A DNA stretch of 64,000 nt, from assembly GCA_019058445.1 (NCBI GenBank), contig JAHPZA010000003.1, forward strand, positions 186,710 to 250,709, read 5' to 3'. The position numbers and the translations under genes are program-made. Under the pieces are notes generated by a model. It made no database searches and was not told the origin of the DNA. It was given only the letters and a program-made list of their open reading frames with translations. The DNA comes from Promethearchaeota archaeon. Its GTDB lineage: Archaea; Asgardarchaeota; Lokiarchaeia; Sigyniarchaeales; SOKP01. Positions 44,217 to 58,549 of this stretch are shown here, piece by piece. Position 1 is the first letter of the stretch; every line of letters begins with the position of its first letter.

Positions 44217-44645
44217 ATGACTGAAAGTAAAGAGTTCAACCCATTCATCCTAGGAATATGCTGTAATTGGTGTACTTATGCTGGTGCTGATCAAGCAGGC
44301 ACATCTCGTATGCAAAGACCAGCTAATTTAAGGATAATGCGAGTTATGTGTGGAGGTCGAGTGGAACCTCAATTTGTCTTAGATGCTCTTATGAATGGAG
44401 CAGACGGCGTGTTAGTTTCGCATTGTCATCCTGGAGATTGTCATTATGTAGAAGGTAATTTTAAAACGATTAGAAAGCTTCCAATGCTGCATCTTTACTT
44501 AAAACAATTTGGAATTAATCCTAAAAGAGTTAAATACACTTTTGTCTCCGCATCTGAGGGGGCAGAATTAACAGAAATTGTAGAAGAATTTGTTAAAGAG
44601 TTAAAAGAATTAGGACCTAATCCAATTAAAAAGGAGGGAAAATAA
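44217..44645 (+). CDS. mvhD: MvhD [2Fe-2S] subunit (Cys form)
   Basis: CCNWCTYAGAD, RVMCGGRV, CHPGDCHY. Confidence 0.95.
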   Translation: MTESKEFNPFILGICCNWCTYAGADQAGTSRMQRPANLRIMRVMCGGRVEPQFVLDALMNGADGVLVSHCHPGDCHYVEGNFKTIRKLPMLHLYLKQFGINPKRVKYTFVSASEGAELTEIVEEFVKELKELGPNPIKKEGK

Positions 44646-49905: not shown

Positions 49906-50068
49906 GTTCTCTTGATCCAATAATTAATTTTTATTATGTTTAGGAAAATTGATAGTTTATAAGCTCAAGATATTTAATTTAATAAAAAAATAATTTATTA
50001 TCAATTTACTTATAAACTATAAATTAATTTTTCAACATTAATTAAATGATAAAAGAAAGGTAATAAAT

Positions 50069-50521
50069 ATGGAAAATAAAGGATCTATAACTGCTTGTAT
50101 CATTGGGGGTGTACTGATGTTTGTGGCTTCAATAGTTGGTTCGGCATTGGCATACCGAATAATAGTAACAGAAGCAACAAAACAATTCCCCGAATATGCA
50201 GCACAACTCGAGCTATTCCTATTAATCTGCATTTTTATTGCAATGGGCGGAGGAATTTCTGTAATATTAGGGAGCATTATCGCATTTAAAGTTGTCCCTA
50301 TTGGTAAATGGATAATAGGCTTAGGGGCAGGAATGGGATTAATAGGCTTTTTGAGTTGGCTTATAACAGGTATATATACAGGCACTATAACCGGAACTGT
50401 AGTGGAGATTTTGATTGGTTTATTATTAGGACCTGCCAGCTATGGTATCATCGGAGTCTTTCTTACAATATGGGCTAGACGTTTTATGAAAAAGAAGAAA
50501 GATAAAGAAATAGAAGAATAA
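50069..50521 (+). CDS. 4-TM membrane protein, paralog of the upstream gene
   Basis: Shares GGGISVIxG and GKxIIxLGxGxGLxG. Confidence 0.75.
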   Translation: MENKGSITACIIGGVLMFVASIVGSALAYRIIVTEATKQFPEYAAQLELFLLICIFIAMGGGISVILGSIIAFKVVPIGKWIIGLGAGMGLIGFLSWLITGIYTGTITGTVVEILIGLLLGPASYGIIGVFLTIWARRFMKKKKDKEIEE

Positions 50522-50632
50522 ATTCAAAACTTAATTACCATAATTTCATTTTTTTTTATTTTCTTGTTTTCAAAGAAAAGTAATAAAAAAAAAAGAAAAA
50601 TAATTAGAAATTAACATATAAGTTCTTGGGAG

Positions 50633-50839
50633 TTATAACCCTCGAACTCGAACTCCAATATAGATTATAAGCCAACTTAAAAAGCAAAGAATAAAACCAG
50701 CTAATAGGATATAATTAGCAGGTACACCAAGAGTAGCTGAAAGTCCATCATAAACTTCCCATATTCCAATAACCATTCCAATTAATAGAACTAAAAATGA
50801 GAACATAATCGTTTTTTTTGTTGGAGGAGAATAAGACAC
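50633..50839 (-). CDS. Small 2-TM protein
   Basis: GTG start, two hydrophobic helices. Confidence 0.6.
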   Translation of the reverse strand: MSYSPPTKKTIMFSFLVLLIGMVIGIWEVYDGLSATLGVPANYILLAGFILCFLSWLIIYIGVRVRGL

Positions 50840-51176
50840 TTTTTAATCATCTCACTTGATTTTTTTATATTATAAAATTCTTAAGATAAAAAACTATTAA
50901 GAAAAAGCAATATAAAAACATTTACACAATTTCTTAAAGGATCAAAAATCTAAGGTTTATCTTATCCAATTTAAGAAATACTATTTTTAGATTTAACTAT
51001 GATAAGAATTAAGCTTAAGATATATCACACTTTTTCTTTTTTGAAATAGTGTTTTTCCTTTCAAAATAGAACTGGTCTAAATACTTATAGATTTAACAAA
51101 TTTTTTAATAAATTCAATATATACCCAAATATCAAAAAATTAAAAATAAAACAAATCAGAATAGTGTAAAAGAATT

Positions 51177-52565
51177 ATGCCGGTACGTGTAGCTTTTATG
51201 CAATTATCTTCATGTTGGGGCTGTCATCAAAGTCTATTAAACGCACATCTCGGATTATTACCCATTTTACCAGAATTAGAAATTGTTTATTGGCCAGCGG
51301 TAGTTGATTTTAAACACGAATCATTAGTAGCGAGACCAGACGGAGACATCGTAGTAGGGTTTATAGAAGGTGTGGCAAGAACAAAGCAAGATACTGAGAA
51401 TGTTAAATTAATGAGAAAAAAATGTAAAGTAATTGTTGCAATAGGCGCATGTGCATGTTATGGTAGTGTTAAAGGGCTAGCCAATCTGTATGATAAAGAA
51501 GAACTTATAAACCGAAAGTTTAAAGAGACCGAGTCTATTACAGATGATGATCCAAAAGAACCTACTGAACATGTTCCTGGAATTGAAGAATTTATTGTAA
51601 ATGTTAAAGATATCATTGATGTAGAGATGTTTATTCCTGGTTGCCCTCCCACAACTGATAATATTATTGCAGCCATTTCTTATTTACTTACTTTAGTTGG
51701 TGAGGGTCCTGATTCTCTTAAGAAAAATAGTACGATATGTGAAACTTGCAATTTATTAAAAAAAGGTTGCTTGTTAGACCAAAATATATTATGCTACGGT
51801 TCAATAACTGCTGCCGGTTGTGAGGAAATGTGTCCAAACAACGGTGAGTTGTGTTATGGATGTTTCAGGCCAACAGCTAAACCACATGAAAAATCTAAAC
51901 AATTAAAAGATATATTAGACAATGTCTTAGCGTTAACTCCAGAACAAGGTGCAAGTTTACAGCATTTTCTAGATCTTTATTTGGGAGCTTCAAATATCAC
52001 GAATTTCTATTTTCGGGGAGATTTAATTCAACGCTTAGGTTATGAACCAGAAAGTTTTGCTACAAAAGAGGTGAATGGAAGATTGATCCTAGATGTAGCA
52101 CCTACCGGGAATGCCATAATGGATGAGATTGTTGGAAGGGCAATGCACCTTTTAAAAGATGATCCATCATTTAAGTTTAGCTCTAAGACCGTTTGTAGCC
52201 ATTGTGAAAGAGATGTTGCTGACAAAGTTCCTACTGAATTAAAGCGAGATTATGAAGGTCTGCCCACAATGGATAAATGCTTTTTAGAGCAAGGATATAT
52301 TTGTTTAGGACCAGTGACTCAAGCAGGATGCGGAACCATATGTCCTAATAAAGCAAATGCTCCCTGCTTAGGATGTTATGGTCCCCCTGTAGGAGTTAAA
52401 GATCAAGGGGCTAAATTTATTAGTGCTCTTGGCTCGCTCTGTGCCAACAGAGAACCAGAAGAAGTTATGAAACTTATTAAAGATCCAGCGGGATTATTTA
52501 ATCGTTTTACTTTAGCCGAAAGCACTTTAGGGCATAAATTTCATGATAAAATGGAGGGTGAGTAA
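51177..52565 (+). CDS. mvhG: Group 3c hydrogenase small subunit (MvhG/VhuG), extended
   Basis: SSCWGCH, GACACYG, PGCPP, and two copies of the distal Cys-rich domain. Confidence 0.92.
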   Translation: MPVRVAFMQLSSCWGCHQSLLNAHLGLLPILPELEIVYWPAVVDFKHESLVARPDGDIVVGFIEGVARTKQDTENVKLMRKKCKVIVAIGACACYGSVKGLANLYDKEELINRKFKETESITDDDPKEPTEHVPGIEEFIVNVKDIIDVEMFIPGCPPTTDNIIAAISYLLTLVGEGPDSLKKNSTICETCNLLKKGCLLDQNILCYGSITAAGCEEMCPNNGELCYGCFRPTAKPHEKSKQLKDILDNVLALTPEQGASLQHFLDLYLGASNITNFYFRGDLIQRLGYEPESFATKEVNGRLILDVAPTGNAIMDEIVGRAMHLLKDDPSFKFSSKTVCSHCERDVADKVPTELKRDYEGLPTMDKCFLEQGYICLGPVTQAGCGTICPNKANAPCLGCYGPPVGVKDQGAKFISALGSLCANREPEEVMKLIKDPAGLFNRFTLAESTLGHKFHDKMEGE

Positions 52566-52568
52566 AAT

Positions 52569-53873
52569 ATGGTGAAAGAGATAGAAGTAGAACCTGTGAC
52601 TCGTTTAGAGGGGCATGGAGGATTAAGGATTGTCTTAGGAGATGATGGGAAAGTAAAAGATGCACAGTTTAATATTACCTCGACAAGATTTTTTGAGAAA
52701 TTCTGTGAAGGTCGTTATTGTGAGCATGTTCCACGAATTACTCCAAGAATTTGTGGTATTTGCCCAATTCCTCATCATTTAACACCTACCAAAGCAGTGG
52801 AAGATGCATGGGGCGTCCAAATCCCTGAACCTGCGCGAAAATTGCGCATTCTATTACAAAATGCGAAACAATATTCATCACATCTATTGCACTTTTATGC
52901 ATTAGCCGCACCTGATTTCTTATTAGGACCTTTTGCAGATCCCGCACTGAGAAATGTAGTCCATGTTATTAATAAAATGCCTGAAGTAGGCGCTATGGCT
53001 TTAAAAATGATGGATTTTGGACAAAAACTTTGTGCGGCAATAGGCGGCAAATCTGTCCATCCAATTTGTGCCATTGTGGGTGGTATGAAAAAACCATTGG
53101 ATGAAGATGTAAGAGATAAATTTCTCAAAGATGTTGATGAGCAAATAGAATTTACCAAAAAGACAGTCGAAATCGGATTAAAAGTGGTAGAGGATTACTG
53201 GGATGTCATAGCTAATGTGGGAGTTGTTCCAACTTATTATGTAGGGCTTACAAAAGATGGTGTCCATGATATTTATGAGGGGGATATACGTATTGTCACT
53301 CCAGAGGGAAAAAAAATCGATTACGCTCCGCAAAATTATCTAGATGCCTTAGGAGAGCACATTCCAGATCATTCTTATGCGACTCATATGTATTACAAGC
53401 CTGCGGGGTATCCTGAGGGGATTTATCGAGCAAATACTTTAGCTATGATTAATGCTGCCGATAAGATGGCCACACCATTGGCCAATGACGCATTAAAAGC
53501 CTTTAGGGAAAAGACCGGACCAATTTCACATCATACCTTTGCGTTTCATTGGGCAAGATTAATTGAAACCGTGGAAGCAATTGAAGTGATTGCTACTTTA
53601 CTTAAAGATCCTGACGTAGTTAATCCGGATTGTAAGACTCTGGATATAGAACCGAAAGAAGCTGCTGGAGTTGGAGTAACAGAAGCTCCAAGAGGATTAT
53701 TACTTTATAATATTTGGTCTGATGCGGCAGGAATCTGTAAGAAACTCAACCTCTTAGTTGCGACAAATCATAATATAGCGGGTATTGAAAAATCGTTGAT
53801 GCATGTGGCGAAGCAGGTATTTGAAGATAAAGCATTGGAGGGTTTAAAACTACCAGACCCCTGGATAAAATAA
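52569..53873 (+). CDS. vhuA: Group 3c hydrogenase large subunit lacking the L2 motif (VhuA-type, split)
   Basis: TRLEGHG, RFFE, L1 RICGICPIPH, EAPRG. Ends at ...DPWIK with no DPCxxC. Confidence 0.93.
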   Translation: MVKEIEVEPVTRLEGHGGLRIVLGDDGKVKDAQFNITSTRFFEKFCEGRYCEHVPRITPRICGICPIPHHLTPTKAVEDAWGVQIPEPARKLRILLQNAKQYSSHLLHFYALAAPDFLLGPFADPALRNVVHVINKMPEVGAMALKMMDFGQKLCAAIGGKSVHPICAIVGGMKKPLDEDVRDKFLKDVDEQIEFTKKTVEIGLKVVEDYWDVIANVGVVPTYYVGLTKDGVHDIYEGDIRIVTPEGKKIDYAPQNYLDALGEHIPDHSYATHMYYKPAGYPEGIYRANTLAMINAADKMATPLANDALKAFREKTGPISHHTFAFHWARLIETVEAIEVIATLLKDPDVVNPDCKTLDIEPKEAAGVGVTEAPRGLLLYNIWSDAAGICKKLNLLVATNHNIAGIEKSLMHVAKQVFEDKALEGLKLPDPWIK

Positions 53874-53929
53874 ATTTATTTATAATTTTTTAAAAATAAA
53901 AACCAAAATCTAAAAAAAAGTGAATAAAA

Positions 53930-54424
53930 ATGGTTGTTGTTGACTATGAATTAAGAAAAAAGGTAATGGATGCTCATATCCATGATGCTTTAAAATATTG
54001 TTATCAGTGCGCTCGTTGCACAGATGTGTGTCCCGTAGCGAAAGTTACAGATCAAAGATATAATCCACGACCAGTTATCATGAACTCGTTTTTAGGGTTA
54101 AACACATTTATGGGAGAAAAGGATAATTTTAGTCTTTGGGGATGTACTATTTGCGATACGTGCGATGAAGTCTGTCCTCAAAAAATTGAGTTAACTGAAA
54201 TATTTACTGTACTAAAGAACATGAGCATCGCAAGAGGAGAAGGTCCAGATTACTATACAACTCAAGCATCGACGATTTATGATACTGGAAAAGCAATACC
54301 GATGCAACCAGCCATCGAAAGGAGAAGAAAGGATTTGGGCCTCCCTGTGATCGAACCTCCTGATGCAGATGAGGTTAAAAAGTTGTTAAATGAAACAAAA
54401 TTAAATAAAATTTTAAAAAAATAG
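53930..54424 (+). CDS. hdrC: Heterodisulfide reductase subunit C (second copy)
   Basis: CYQCARCTDVCP and CTICDTCDEVCP. Confidence 0.88.
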   Translation: MVVVDYELRKKVMDAHIHDALKYCYQCARCTDVCPVAKVTDQRYNPRPVIMNSFLGLNTFMGEKDNFSLWGCTICDTCDEVCPQKIELTEIFTVLKNMSIARGEGPDYYTTQASTIYDTGKAIPMQPAIERRRKDLGLPVIEPPDADEVKKLLNETKLNKILKK

Positions 54425-54440
54425 AAAGAGAGGAATAAAT

Positions 54441-55328
54441 ATGGCAAAAACAGAAGAATATAAAATGTTCCAAGGATGTACTATTGGAAATCGGATCCCC
54501 TTTCTTGAAGCGTCCGCACGAAAAGTATTTGATAAACTGGGAATTAAAACCTCTGAAGCCCCTTTTGCATGTTGTCCAGATCCCGTAGGATTTAATTCCA
54601 CAGATCATTTAAGTTGGCTTGCAATGGGAGCGAGAAATCTTACAATTGCCGAAGATGAAGGAAAAGATATCATTTCTCTTTGTAACGGATGTTTTCAAAC
54701 GTTAAAACTTGTGAATAAAGAATTAATCCATGATGAACACGAGAAAGAAAAAATTAACGCTATCTTGAAAACAATTGGAAGAGAATTCAAAGGGACTATT
54801 AATGTAAAACATTTCGTAGAAGTGTTATATGACATTGGTGCTGATAAAATAAAAGAGAATGTTGTAAAAGAATTAGCAGGATTAAAAGTTGCTTGTCATA
54901 CAGGTTGTCATTACAATCGACCTTCTGAAATAGTTCAAACAGATGATCCCATGAAACCAATTAAATTAAGAGGAGTTGTTAAAGCCACAGGCGCAGTTCC
55001 AGTAGATTATGAGGAAGAAATGCTCTGTTGTGGGGCTGGAGTCGGTAATACTGAAGAAGAGCCAGCAATGCAAATTTTAAATAATAAAATAACCAGCGCG
55101 ATGAACGCTGGAGCAGAAGCGTTTATTGTCAATTGTCCTGCGTGTTTTCAGCAATTTGATACTAATCAGAAAAAAGCAGAAAAAATAGCGGGAAAAAATT
55201 TCGGAATTCCAGTGTTGTATGTGACTGAATTACTTGCATTGGCCTTTGGTGAGAAACCAGATGATTTAGGTTTGAAATTTCATCGTGTTAGACTGAGTGC
55301 TCTCTTAGAAAAACATGGACTTAGCTAG
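54441..55328 (+). CDS. hdrB: Heterodisulfide reductase subunit B (second copy)
   Basis: CCPDP, CNGC, GCHY, CCGAG, CPAC. Confidence 0.9.
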   Translation: MAKTEEYKMFQGCTIGNRIPFLEASARKVFDKLGIKTSEAPFACCPDPVGFNSTDHLSWLAMGARNLTIAEDEGKDIISLCNGCFQTLKLVNKELIHDEHEKEKINAILKTIGREFKGTINVKHFVEVLYDIGADKIKENVVKELAGLKVACHTGCHYNRPSEIVQTDDPMKPIKLRGVVKATGAVPVDYEEEMLCCGAGVGNTEEEPAMQILNNKITSAMNAGAEAFIVNCPACFQQFDTNQKKAEKIAGKNFGIPVLYVTELLALAFGEKPDDLGLKFHRVRLSALLEKHGLS

Positions 55329-55414
55329 AATAAAAGAAACTAACTTTATTATAATAACAAATATCTTTTAATTTAAAGAAAAAGATTAGCATTTAAAAAA
55401 GGTGGATATGAATT

Positions 55415-55567
55415 ATGAGTGAAGATGTGCCAGAAGGAGTTGTAAATCTCTTAGAAATGGTTGTCCGTTGTTTTGACTGCTGACTATCATGCGCCGCTCA
55501 TATAACTGTCGTTAATGAAGACGGTGAAGAGATATACAAACGTCAATTAAACGTTGGTTTAGGATGA
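55415..55567 (+). CDS. vhuU: Selenoprotein VhuU: MSEDVPEGVVNLLEMVVRCFDCULSCAAHITVVNEDGEEIYKRQLNVGLG (U = TGA 55481-55483)
   Basis: Manual translation. GGTGG SD upstream. The in-frame TGA sits at the Ni-ligand position of the L2 motif missing from VhuA, and a SECIS-like hairpin follows. Confidence 0.93.
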
Positions 55568-55623
55568 TTGTCCAATAAAAAACGGAGATTGGACATGACT
55601 GCCCTTGTGCGGGTATGACCAAC
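55553..55623 (+). promoter_or_regulatory. Eukaryote-type SECIS element
   Basis: ATGAT / TGTCCAAT / AAAAAACGGAG / ATTGGACA / TGAC gives a UGAN/NGAN core, perfect 8-bp helix and A-rich apical loop. GTTGGTT (55553) can pair with GACCAAC (55617). Confidence 0.85.
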
Positions 55624-55734
55624 AAAATTCTTATTTTTATATTTTTTAGCTTAGAATCATGGCTGAATATAGACCTATAATTGAGTATGGAAGTACTAAG
55701 AGTGTTCATCTGTAAAAAATAAGGAACTCTTTTT

Positions 55735-57048
55735 TTATTTTAATTTGCCAAAAAGGTTAAATCCCTCAACTTTTTTTATTTTTACTTCAACAAATTTGCC
55801 AAAGTTATCATCATATTTCTCAATAAAAATATTTTTATAAGCAAAATTTCTTCCAAAAGCTTGATGTTCTGCGGAACCCTTATGAAGTATTAATACTTCA
55901 CCTTGCCAGCCTTCCCATTTTTTATTCATATTGGAAAGGCTATTGCGGAAGATATTAGATAATCTAATAGATCTTTCCTTGATAGTTCTACTATCAAGTT
56001 GTTTCATATCCTTTGCTTTGGTTCCAGGTCGAGCAGTAAATTTAGAAATATTTAAAATCTCTGGTTTTAACCATTTTATAAAGTTAATTGTGCGATAAAA
56101 ATCGTATTCAGTTTCGCTGGGAAATCCACAGATAATATCAGTAGAAATCGTAAGATCTGGAAAATTTGCTCTTAAAACTTCAATTTTCTCTGCTATTTTC
56201 GAAATTAAGTAAGGTCTCTGCATTAATTTAAGGATTTTATTGCTTCCAGATTGAATAGGAATATGAAGAAATTGATATACTTTTTCTAAATTAAAAATCG
56301 AAATTAATTGATCAAAATTAGTGATTAAAAAACTTGGATTTATCATTCCTATTCTTAAAAAGAATTTGTATGGTAAATTGACAATAGATTTCACTAAATT
56401 GAATAGATTTATGTTATTATTTTGATAAGTGCTACAATCTTGAGAGGTTAAATATATCTGTTTAATACCTTGTTTTAGTTGGTATTTAACGTTCTCAATA
56501 ATTTTATGAGGATTATAGCAATTTAAACTACCACGAGCATTTTTTACACAACAATATGTACATGATCCTTCGCAGCCCTCTGATATAGGAATAATTCCAG
56601 TGATCTTTCCTTCAGTATGATCAATTAAATATTCTGCTTTGTCAATTGAATTATTTGTTTTAAGAATTAAATTCCTTTTTCCTTGCTTTATTTTTTCAAA
56701 TATTTCTGGTAATTCATGAATATTATCTAAATCAATAATAGCGGAAAATGTTGGAATTAGTTTCTTGACGACCTCTGTGTAATTTGGAGTGATATGTGGT
56801 AAACAACCAGCAATAATTATATGTTTATTAACATCATTAGAATATATCTTAAATAACTGCTTCAATCGTGATTTAATCTTATTCTCAGTTTGTTCTTTAA
56901 CGGCGCATGTATTAATAATAATGAATTCTGCTTTGTCTATTGATGTTTGATAATACTTATTTTTTTTTAAAATGCTAGAAATTATATAAGAATCAGCTTT
57001 ATTTGAAGTACATCCATATGTTTCAATATAAAAAGAATTGGCTTCCAA
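55735..57048 (-). CDS. mtaB: tRNA t6A37 methylthiotransferase (archaeal MtaB/CDKAL1 type)
   Basis: ETYGCTSN, NTCAVK, CEGSCTYC, HIPIQSGS, DIICGFPSET, TRAM-like C-terminus. Confidence 0.88.
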   Translation of the reverse strand: MEANSFYIETYGCTSNKADSYIISSILKKNKYYQTSIDKAEFIIINTCAVKEQTENKIKSRLKQLFKIYSNDVNKHIIIAGCLPHITPNYTEVVKKLIPTFSAIIDLDNIHELPEIFEKIKQGKRNLILKTNNSIDKAEYLIDHTEGKITGIIPISEGCEGSCTYCCVKNARGSLNCYNPHKIIENVKYQLKQGIKQIYLTSQDCSTYQNNNINLFNLVKSIVNLPYKFFLRIGMINPSFLITNFDQLISIFNLEKVYQFLHIPIQSGSNKILKLMQRPYLISKIAEKIEVLRANFPDLTISTDIICGFPSETEYDFYRTINFIKWLKPEILNISKFTARPGTKAKDMKQLDSRTIKERSIRLSNIFRNSLSNMNKKWEGWQGEVLILHKGSAEHQAFGRNFAYKNIFIEKYDDNFGKFVEVKIKKVEGFNLFGKLK

Positions 57049-57171
57049 AATCAGTTCATTTCAATAAGATTTAATAATCTATAAAAGAACTAATAATATA
57101 ACGATAAAAAATTTTTTTAAAAAAGCAGTCTAATATTAACAGAAATTTACTCATTAAAGTGGATGATCTAA

Positions 57172-57612
57172 ATGGTTAAAATTAAATATGCTTATTGCAA
57201 ATATTGCGATAAAGAAGTCCATAAACCTTCTCAAAAACCACTTGGTTCGATGCAAAAAAATTATTGGATCGTAATTTGTATTGCGACTTTAGGAATCGGC
57301 ATTATTGGGTACTATTTATACAAGAATTCTTTGAAAAAGAAAATATATTGCCCTACGTGTTATTCAAAATTAGAATTTTCATCTGAGCCTTTTGAAAAGC
57401 CTAAATTAGCAGAAACATTAACTGCAAAACAAAAGGCTATAGCGAAAGTTGAAAAGAAAAAAACCGGAAAGGTACCAGCAAAAAAGAAAGTTGAAAAGAA
57501 AGAGGTGGAGGTAGAACCAGAAGAAAAAAAACTAATATGTGAGTTATGTGGTGAAACTTTAAAAGAGAAAACTAAAACATGTCCTTACTGCGGTGCGCCT
57601 CTTAAATTTTGA
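57172..57612 (+). CDS. LITAF-like Zn/membrane domain plus C-terminal Zn ribbon protein
   Basis: CKYC - hydrophobic segment - CPTC; Lys/Glu linker; CELC...CPYC. Confidence 0.6.
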   Translation: MVKIKYAYCKYCDKEVHKPSQKPLGSMQKNYWIVICIATLGIGIIGYYLYKNSLKKKIYCPTCYSKLEFSSEPFEKPKLAETLTAKQKAIAKVEKKKTGKVPAKKKVEKKEVEVEPEEKKLICELCGETLKEKTKTCPYCGAPLKF

Positions 57613-57790
57613 AAAATACGGGAATATTATATCTTTATATATTTTTTTAAGTGAAAATAAAATTTATCAAAAATATAATAAAAAATAAATTAAAAGAAAA
57701 GAGTTTTAAACAATATATTATAAAAAGAAATTTAAAGAATATATTAAAAATAATATTAAAAAAAAAATAAAACAAAATAGAGGATGAATT

Positions 57791-58549
57791 ATGCCAAGAA
57801 AAGCTCCCTCAAGAGAGCCGGACCCGCTTGATGATTATAGCACCTGGGATGTTAGAATTGCAAGAGCTTATTACTATTCTTTCATAGCTTCAGCATTAAT
57901 TATGGTTATTGGGATCTGGGGTTTGATTCTTTCTGGTATTGATCCGGCAATATGGAAACAATATTTAGCGCTAGATGCTGGCTTCCAAGTCGCCATAGTT
58001 GCCGCATTTATTACTGGACATCTGATCTTACTTGTTCTTTTTTATGCCATGTTTAAAGGTGGTATTGTAAGAATGTGTAGAACCATATACAAAAATCGAA
58101 CTGTCGCTAAAAAATGGGAAGATTATACGTATCTTAGATGGTTGATGGGCGTTACCATATTGGGTATTTATGTAGTTGTGATTTCATTAATAATTGGATT
58201 CTTACCAGGGGGAACTATCAAGTTTATCTCTGATCTTACTCTTTGGGCACTTGAAAATTTTAATGTCGGCCATTGGATCTTATGGATAGGTTTTTGTGTT
58301 TTCCTAATAGTACTTTTCTTCTTTGTCATGTTCTGGGTATGGAACCATGGAGTGTACATAGTCTTAAGAAATATCAAAAAAATCGAGGAAGAAGAAGTCA
58401 TAGATATGGAAATCAAGAGAGATACTCTAAAGAAAATGTCCGAGGAAGAACGCCGAGCAGAATATAAGAAAGAAACTGGAAAAGATGCAGCATATCGAGG
58501 CAAAGATACCAGAGGATATAAAAATTGGAAGAAAAAATACGGCGTATAA
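57791..58549 (+). CDS. 4-TM membrane protein with charged C-terminal tail
   Basis: Four hydrophobic helices; YKKETGKDAAYRGKDTRGYKNW tail. Confidence 0.75.
   Translation: MPRKAPSREPDPLDDYSTWDVRIARAYYYSFIASALIMVIGIWGLILSGIDPAIWKQYLALDAGFQVAIVAAFITGHLILLVLFYAMFKGGIVRMCRTIYKNRTVAKKWEDYTYLRWLMGVTILGIYVVVISLIIGFLPGGTIKFISDLTLWALENFNVGHWILWIGFCVFLIVLFFFVMFWVWNHGVYIVLRNIKKIEEEEVIDMEIKRDTLKKMSEEERRAEYKKETGKDAAYRGKDTRGYKNWKKKYGV

Follow-up and report, generated by a model that had tools for sequence, protein, structure and literature searches.

Can a single SECIS element direct the insertion of selenocysteine (Sec) at one UGA and at the same time contain, within its own core, a second UGA that ends the same reading frame? 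This question is raised by a small gene, vhuU, in the window analysed here, a stretch of 64,000 nucleotides from a Promethearchaeota archaeon of the Lokiarchaeia (Asgard). A sequence-only reading of this DNA had claimed that the vhuU mRNA carries two UGA codons of opposite meaning, and that the second of these forms the 5' core of a eukaryote-type SECIS. The overlap between stop codon and SECIS core is real and conserved, but it is already known, having been published in 2016.

The vhuU gene consists of 50 codons followed by a UGA stop (55415-55567, plus strand), and a plausible Shine-Dalgarno sequence (GGTGG, 55401-05) precedes its start at 55415. Translated with TGA as U, the gene encodes MSEDVPEGVVNLLEMVVRCFDCULSCAAHITVVNEDGEEIYKRQLNVGLG. 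The motif RCFDCULSCAAH stands centrally in this 50-residue peptide and is followed by a 21-residue tail; in Methanococcus voltae VhuU, processing occurs after the His. The first UGA, codon 23 (55481-55483, plus strand), aligns with a Cys both in MvhA and in two Cys-type homologues (L080 and L081). In the alignment of VhuU residues 3-32 to the MvhA C-terminus (5odc_F residues 422-451, E 3.7e-5), this codon falls at the metal-ligand (Ni-ligand) Cys. VhuU also aligns to a solved 27-aa chain (9sfi_M, 'F420 non-reducing hydrogenase subunit'), which has an X at the Sec position and ends one residue past the His. Most vhuU genes of Lokiarchaeia, this one included (55478-55483), have the Ni-site motif D-C-U, in which a Cys immediately precedes Sec; D-P-U, D-N-U or D-F-U is found in the few remaining lineages (L033, L047, L050, L082).

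The genes upstream on the same strand (51177-55328), identified as ORFs and by Pfam matches that include Oxidored_q6, Fer4 families and CCG, encode a hydrogenase small subunit (51177-52565), the truncated large subunit VhuA (52569-53873), an HdrC-like protein (53930-54424) and an HdrB-like protein (54441-55328). VhuA matches the NiFeSe_Hases family in its N-terminal part only: its best Pfam stretch, residues 40-118, covers only positions 1-79 of the 508-position profile, and the ORF stops at 434 aa with the C-terminal Ni motif absent. A Pfam search gave no match for the 50-aa VhuU itself. VhuU is defined as a separate ORF of about 50 aa with the motif D-x-U-x-x-C-x-x-H, accompanied by a large subunit that lacks the C-terminal motif, and both are found here. 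Judging from these alignments, VhuU is the part that contributes the C-terminal Ni-binding motif (DCU-LSC-AAH) to a split [NiFeSe] hydrogenase large subunit. Downstream, a T5 and a T6 run (55634-55647, plus strand) lie just 3' of the SECIS and are, from their sequence, likely to represent an archaeal oligo-T termination signal; T-runs come after the element in many orthologues as well. The next gene (55735-57048, minus strand) is convergent.

The second UGA (55565-67) follows the last codon in the sequence GGA-TGA (55562-67), such that the last base of the Gly50 codon together with the stop makes up the AUGA of the 5' core (55564-55567), exactly to the base as had been claimed. Immediately after it begins the 5' strand of helix II, UUGUCCAAU (55568-55576), whose 3' strand is AUUGGACAU (55588-55596). 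The nine positions of this helix comprise eight Watson-Crick pairs, formed by TGTCCAAT (55569-76) with ATTGGACA (55588-95), and a U.U at 55568/55596. The apical loop, AAAAAACGGAG (55577-55587), has an A-rich start and an AG end; the A6 loop of the sequence-only reading corresponds to the first six bases of what is really an 11-nt loop. The 3' GA of the core (55597-55598), the partner of the G and A of AUGA and replaced by AA in many relatives, lies within the 3' TGAC of the hairpin (55596-99). Below the core, helix I pairs GUUGGUU (GTTGGTT in the DNA; 55553-55559), which lies within Val-Gly-Leu codons (about codons 46-49), with GACCAAC (55617-55623). Between the 3' GA and the 3' strand of helix I stands a third helix, a GC mini-hairpin on the non-bulged strand (GCCC-UUGUGC-GGGU, 55601-55614, with arms at 55601-04 and 55611-14).

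All three helices appear in the RNAfold prediction, in which the minimum free energy structure (-21.6 kcal/mol) equals the centroid; the proposed hairpin and the additional small hairpin in its 3' arm were thus both recovered. Counted from the U of the Sec UGA, the A of AUGA lies 83 nt downstream, close to the 80 nt originally estimated. The z-score of the single-sequence fold is -1.55, which is not significant and would not exceed chance, and the case for the element therefore rests on comparison.

The element is very probably a SECIS of the published lokiSECIS class, with an AUGA...GA core, a nine-position stem, an 11-nt A-rich loop and a location at the 3' end of the mRNA. Mariotti et al. 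2016 (PMC4989117) define the class by these features in their main text, and every one of them that can be tested is found here: the AUGA, the stem, the loop, the GA, and the placement at the end of a gene with a Cys-aligned UGA. The lokiSECIS which that text describes for VhuU.1 of Lokiarchaeum sp. GC14_75 likewise has a 9-bp stem immediately preceded by AUGA, an 11-nt loop with A's first and AG last, GA/AA after the stem, and a place at the end of the coding sequence. It differs from the present element at the basal stem position, which is U.U here, and in the 3' dinucleotide, which is GA here and is reported as AA for VhuU. The same text states that the AUGA of VhuU.1 doubles as the stop codon, and already prints the argument from structural constraint and minimal distance, namely unfolding. 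It presents a hairpin only, and helix I within the coding sequence and the mini-hairpin go unmentioned in the main text. Huang, Xiao and Zhang 2024 (PMC11227280), again as far as the main text goes, describe UGA stops as often overlapping AUGA in Lokiarchaeia. Their eSECIS-like type I of Asgard archaea has the same GA_[G/A]A core, an upper stem of 7-15 bp and a loop of 8-20 nt, and the lower stems they give for frhA (vhuU), [U/C]GG_C[C/U][A/G], correspond to the UGG/CCA of helix I. The type I model consists of core, upper stem and loop, with no third helix in the text.

The claim that the layout is that of the eukaryotic kink-turn SECIS, not the methanococcal one, is borne out by the AUGA...GA core, the A-rich loop, the closing helix and the absence of a GAA_A bulge. 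With eukaryotic type I SECIS (RF00031) the element shares the kink-turn-type AUGA...GA quartet, unpaired apical A's, helix I below the internal loop, a position at the 3' end, and an action at a distance that requires a minimum spacing. The quartet, the apical AA and helix I are present in sequence and covariation, and the non-canonical pairs would follow from them. Compared with the eukaryotic type, the lokiarchaeal element has a shorter upper stem, carries an additional hairpin on the 3' side of its internal loop, and overlaps the coding sequence. Scoring with the Rfam model of the eukaryotic SECIS, which had been suggested as a check, failed: a scan of 50000-58000 at E<=10 returned no SECIS (RF00031), only three chance matches, and three other element-bearing loci gave no RF00031 match at E<=1. 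SECISearch3 also fails on such elements according to the main texts of Mariotti 2016 (PMC4989117) and Huang 2024 (PMC11227280), and no SBP2 gene is reported for any Asgard genome in the literature. What the element shares with the methanococcal SECIS is a 3' UTR position near the stop codon, a short apical helix that contains GC pairs, and a similar UGA-SECIS distance (83 nt here, 88 nt in M. maripaludis fruA); the asymmetric euryarchaeal GAA_A bulge is missing, its place being taken by GAC-U-GCCC...GGGU-AU.

How far is the arrangement kept among relatives? A six-frame search detected vhuU in 142 of 161 genomes of the class, nearly always with a single in-frame TGA; the relatives with a match in the VhuU alignment are all Promethearchaeota/Promethearchaeia-type MAGs. 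We compared 90 loci, 88 of them distinct Sec-type genes and two Cys-type. The core lies at offset -1 from the stop, that is, the two overlap, in 74 of the 88 Sec-type loci by script, and two further overlaps recognised by eye (L032 with CUGA; L065) bring the number to 76. The overlap, whose conservation across Lokiarchaeia had been named as a check, thus holds in about 85% of the loci; it spans four families (f1, f3, f5, f7) as well as the second vhuU copy of the genome, and looks ancestral. This quantification is added here. The gene ends in GGA-TGA in 71 of the 88 distinct loci; GGA accounts for 47% of Gly codons genome-wide. In 12 loci there is no overlap: the stop is UAA or UAG and the core lies 4-33 nt downstream. 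These loci come from f4, f6, a single f1 genome and some of f3, three single-contig genomes among them. An overlap is thus frequent and probably old, yet it is not obligatory. The second vhuU copy (L031/L125; G000:C3:156278-156490, minus strand), with 79% identity, shows the same GGA-UGA/AUGA overlap, but an additional A separates AUGA from a stem of nine perfect pairs, a 1-nt 5' bulge that is common in the family.

At the sequence level, the 5' core of 74 distinct sequences is AUGA in 70, UUGA in two, CUGA in one and GUGA in one. Within the apical loop, positions 2-3 (A30, A31) never vary and position 1 is A in most sequences; for A32 and the last G, conservation is 90% or more. The dinucleotide 3' of the stem is GA in some orthologues and AA in others. 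A MAFFT alignment of 74 distinct orthologous 3' ends (A1) bears out the proposed covariation strongly for helices I and II, which RNAalifold recovers unaided. Over all pairs, 90.8% of cells are paired compared with 84.3% after shuffling, and 105 cells are changed on both sides compared with 28; the observed covariation was never reached by shuffles, whose statistics overstate independence because the aligned sequences are relatives. When the partners are slid by one column, pairing falls to 45-53%. Changes on both sides are seen at 14 of the 21 pairs. Pairing reaches 93.6% in helix I, where five of the eight pairs show compensatory changes (at one of them U-A and C-G stand at 35:30), and 89% in helix II, with all nine pairs changed on both sides among the 74 sequences. 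Neither of the two Cys-type vhuU homologues, both TAA-ended, has the element, also when searched with a covariance model built from vhuU elements alone.

In these comparisons the second UGA has evolved in the manner of a stop codon, which agrees with the claim of opposite meanings: the first UGA aligns with Cys, and what follows the second is not kept as coding sequence. Close relatives differ by 1-nt insertions right after it (for example ATGA-A-ATATCC versus ATGA-ATATCC), and the frame past it extends for 3-69 codons and is not conserved. Of the 88 Sec-type loci, 86 have Sec and stop 84 nt apart (81 nt in L087 and 90 nt in L082), and ten of the 12 non-overlapping loci have UAA or UAG at the same codon position, 84 nt from Sec. 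The sequence-only reading had further suggested that the codons for the cleavable propeptide double as the spacer between UGA and SECIS. This idea is weakened by the 84-nt tail being kept also where the SECIS does not overlap the stop; since the length is about the same in Cys forms (84-87 nt), it looks like a protein constraint.

We infer that the element functions in Sec insertion, that a factor binds it, and that the two UGAs are told apart by its unfolding. According to this model, when UGA23 is in the A site the element would lie 70-140 nt downstream, outside the ribosome and folded, and would recruit EFsec with Sec-tRNA, resulting in the insertion of Sec as a Ni ligand. When the second UGA reaches the A site, the codon is itself part of the SECIS core; the 5' strand of helix I would then be inside the ribosome, in the decoding region, and helix II would fill the mRNA entry channel. 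The SECIS would no longer exist at that moment, and a release factor would read the UGA as a stop.

Several other explanations have to be weighed against this model. Codon context, rather than the unfolding of the SECIS, could set Sec versus stop, and the two UGAs do differ in their 3' neighbours: the Sec UGA is followed by C (77 of the 88 distinct loci) or U (11) and never by A or G, and the stop UGA by A (59), U (16) or G (1). However, both neighbours are fixed by other demands, the first by a Leu codon and the second by helix II. Moreover, in the zinc-ribbon genes described below a U comes after the presumed Sec UGA (UGA-UAA/UAG), just as it does after the stop UGA of vhuU in the window, and context alone therefore cannot separate the two; we regard this explanation as unlikely. 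Recoding or read-through might also affect the second UGA and lengthen the VhuU precursor. The nearness of the SECIS would fit this, and an extension could perhaps be tolerated in a tail that is removed anyway in hydrogenase maturation. The indels just after the UGA, the variable frames beyond it, and the UAA or UAG stop at the same position in loci among the 12 of 88 without overlap make read-through or a second Sec very unlikely, to the point that we give it hardly any weight.

Two further alternatives concern the structure itself. It lies at the end of the transcript with T-runs directly after it, and might be a mere 3'-end, terminator or stability element with no part in Sec insertion. Archaeal termination, however, requires no hairpin. 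A terminator would also leave unexplained the sequence-level conservation of AUGA, of the 3' GA/AA and of the A-rich loop, and the presence of the element after Sec-type genes of four unrelated families together with its absence after Cys-type vhuU and zinc-ribbon genes; we consider it as improbable as read-through. It is nearly as improbable that the functional signal is a euryarchaeal-type SECIS, made of helix I and the GC mini-hairpin, with the kink-turn hairpin as an accessory insertion. The mini-hairpin, with three conserved C-G pairs over a basal stem and an internal loop with GA, does loosely recall the methanogen layout of basal stem, GAA_A and GC clamp. Yet in place of GAA_A there is GAC or AAC plus two spacer bases, the most conserved part is the hairpin with AUGA/GA and the A-rich loop, and eaSECIS-like folds in Asgard archaea are judged non-functional in the main text of Huang 2024. 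The Loki vhuU.2 SECIS is also not functional in M. maripaludis (Peiter et al. 2025), the sole reported lokiSECIS test, and this failure may only reflect host specificity.

The same element is found at other UGA-containing genes. A strict motif (ATGA N9 AAA N7 G N9 [GA]A, at least eight pairs), which replaced a loose motif whose 245 matches were mostly spurious, has three matches in the 4.6-Mb genome compared with 0-1 in shuffles. All three lie just 3' of UGA-containing ORFs: vhuU, a Prx-like (PrxL) gene with W-U-x-x-U, and a 156-aa ORF with VGC-U-U. The second vhuU copy escapes the strict pattern owing to its 1-nt 5' bulge. The covariance model from vhuU elements alone (R1) gave full-length matches to the elements at the 3' ends of about 30 PrxL genes, of the VGC-U-U gene, of TAA-type vhuU and of a zinc-ribbon family; one further match (C10:323083-323146, E 0.04) was dismissed as lying within ordinary coding sequence. 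In an alignment of elements from these different genes (A2), all 21 pairs are changed on both sides, including the four of the mini-hairpin, and the covariation score is 0.73 compared with 0.21 for shuffled and at most 0.19 for slid partners, in an alignment that was fitted to the model and is biased toward the structure. The core UGA is the stop codon also in some PrxL loci of relatives (L115 by script, L122-L124 by eye), and the stop/core overlap is therefore not specific to vhuU.

Two of these genes, both elsewhere in the genome, are candidate new selenoproteins. One encodes a 37-aa zinc-ribbon peptide (MIICQKCGH...CPNC...RFK-UGA-UAA; L095:2216-2326, minus strand, equal to G000:C3:332119-332229) and lies outside the window on the same contig, just upstream of a PrxL selenoprotein gene. 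Its homologues in family f1 (L208-L227) end either in K-U-stop, with UGA then UAA or UAG, or in K-C-stop. Nearly all of the U forms have their own downstream SECIS-like element, detected by pattern scan or with R1, with the core placed 33-53 nt past the UGA in seven out of ten; none of the C forms has a SECIS-like element. This clean Sec/Cys pair at the last residue makes the peptide a candidate new small selenoprotein, and it is absent from the Asgard and archaeal selenoprotein families given in the text of Huang 2024 (PMC11227280) and of a 2026 review. The other, the 156-aa ORF (L091:276-746, plus strand, equal to G000:C6:633575-634045), has two adjacent in-frame UGAs in VGC-U-U, a TAA stop and, 8 nt after the TAA, a perfect lokiSECIS. 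It has no Pfam match and is a candidate for a new selenoprotein family.

Could the mini-hairpin be more than decoration? It folds in nearly all vhuU orthologues, being about 90% paired in A1 and 92% paired in A2, where four of its four pairs are changed on both sides. It sits on the non-bulged strand opposite the loop, which is the topology of a k-junction, a motif with tandem G.A and A.G pairs beside a bulge; the required G and A bases and a third helix are present and conserved. The likeness to the k-junction (Lilley lab; PMC4005666, PMC10573300) would be one of topology only; the bulged-strand loop has 5-6 nt in the lokiarchaeal element compared with 3 in the k-junction. One may tentatively propose, at somewhat less than even chances, that the Sec signal is a k-junction-like three-way junction of about 80 nt, of which the mini-hairpin (approximately CCC-UUGCNN-GGG) between the 3' GA and helix I is an integral part, in vhuU, PrxL and the two further families. 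According to this speculation the mini-hairpin could be a docking site for a factor standing in for SBP2. The GC mini-hairpin is unmentioned in the main texts of Mariotti 2016 and Huang 2024, and a full-text search for SECIS together with 'three-way junction' gave nothing relevant; the third helix, and an element common to several selenoprotein families, may thus be an addition over the literature. The third helix belongs in any construct that tests lokiSECIS function, and leaving it out might explain failed heterologous tests.

Because a SECIS resembling the eukaryotic one occurs in the archaeal lineage most closely related to eukaryotes, an Asgard-type system has been put forward as the ancestor of eukaryotic Sec decoding. 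The overlap offers a natural demonstration in which one SECIS would permit Sec at a UGA 83 nt ahead of it and yet contain a UGA that acts as a stop, and it sets a lower bound on the working distance of a SECIS. To this we add that recoding still appears to take place where just 33-53 nt, at the shortest about 33 nt, separate a UGA from the core, since nearly all zinc-ribbon U forms have the element and no C form does; this lends the unfolding model indirect support.

As for the Sec machinery, SepSecS is encoded in the genome. A search with RF01852 found no tRNA-Sec in the 92.6%-complete assembly, and ARAGORN with introns allowed (-i) gave a candidate tRNA-SeC at C1:27020-27126. A 93-nt ARAGORN call on C9 was rejected as tRNA-Sec, being an ordinary tRNA with an intron. 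In the 4.6 Mb, ARAGORN counts five tRNAs without introns and 23 with -i, and most tRNA genes seem to be intron-containing or unassembled. The MvhD/FlpD homologues of this genome, one in the window (44247-44615; C3:230956-231324) and four at other loci, are free of in-frame stops in five cases out of five. It therefore appears that HdrA/VhuD, typically selenoproteins in other Lokiarchaeia, are present as Cys forms in this genome.
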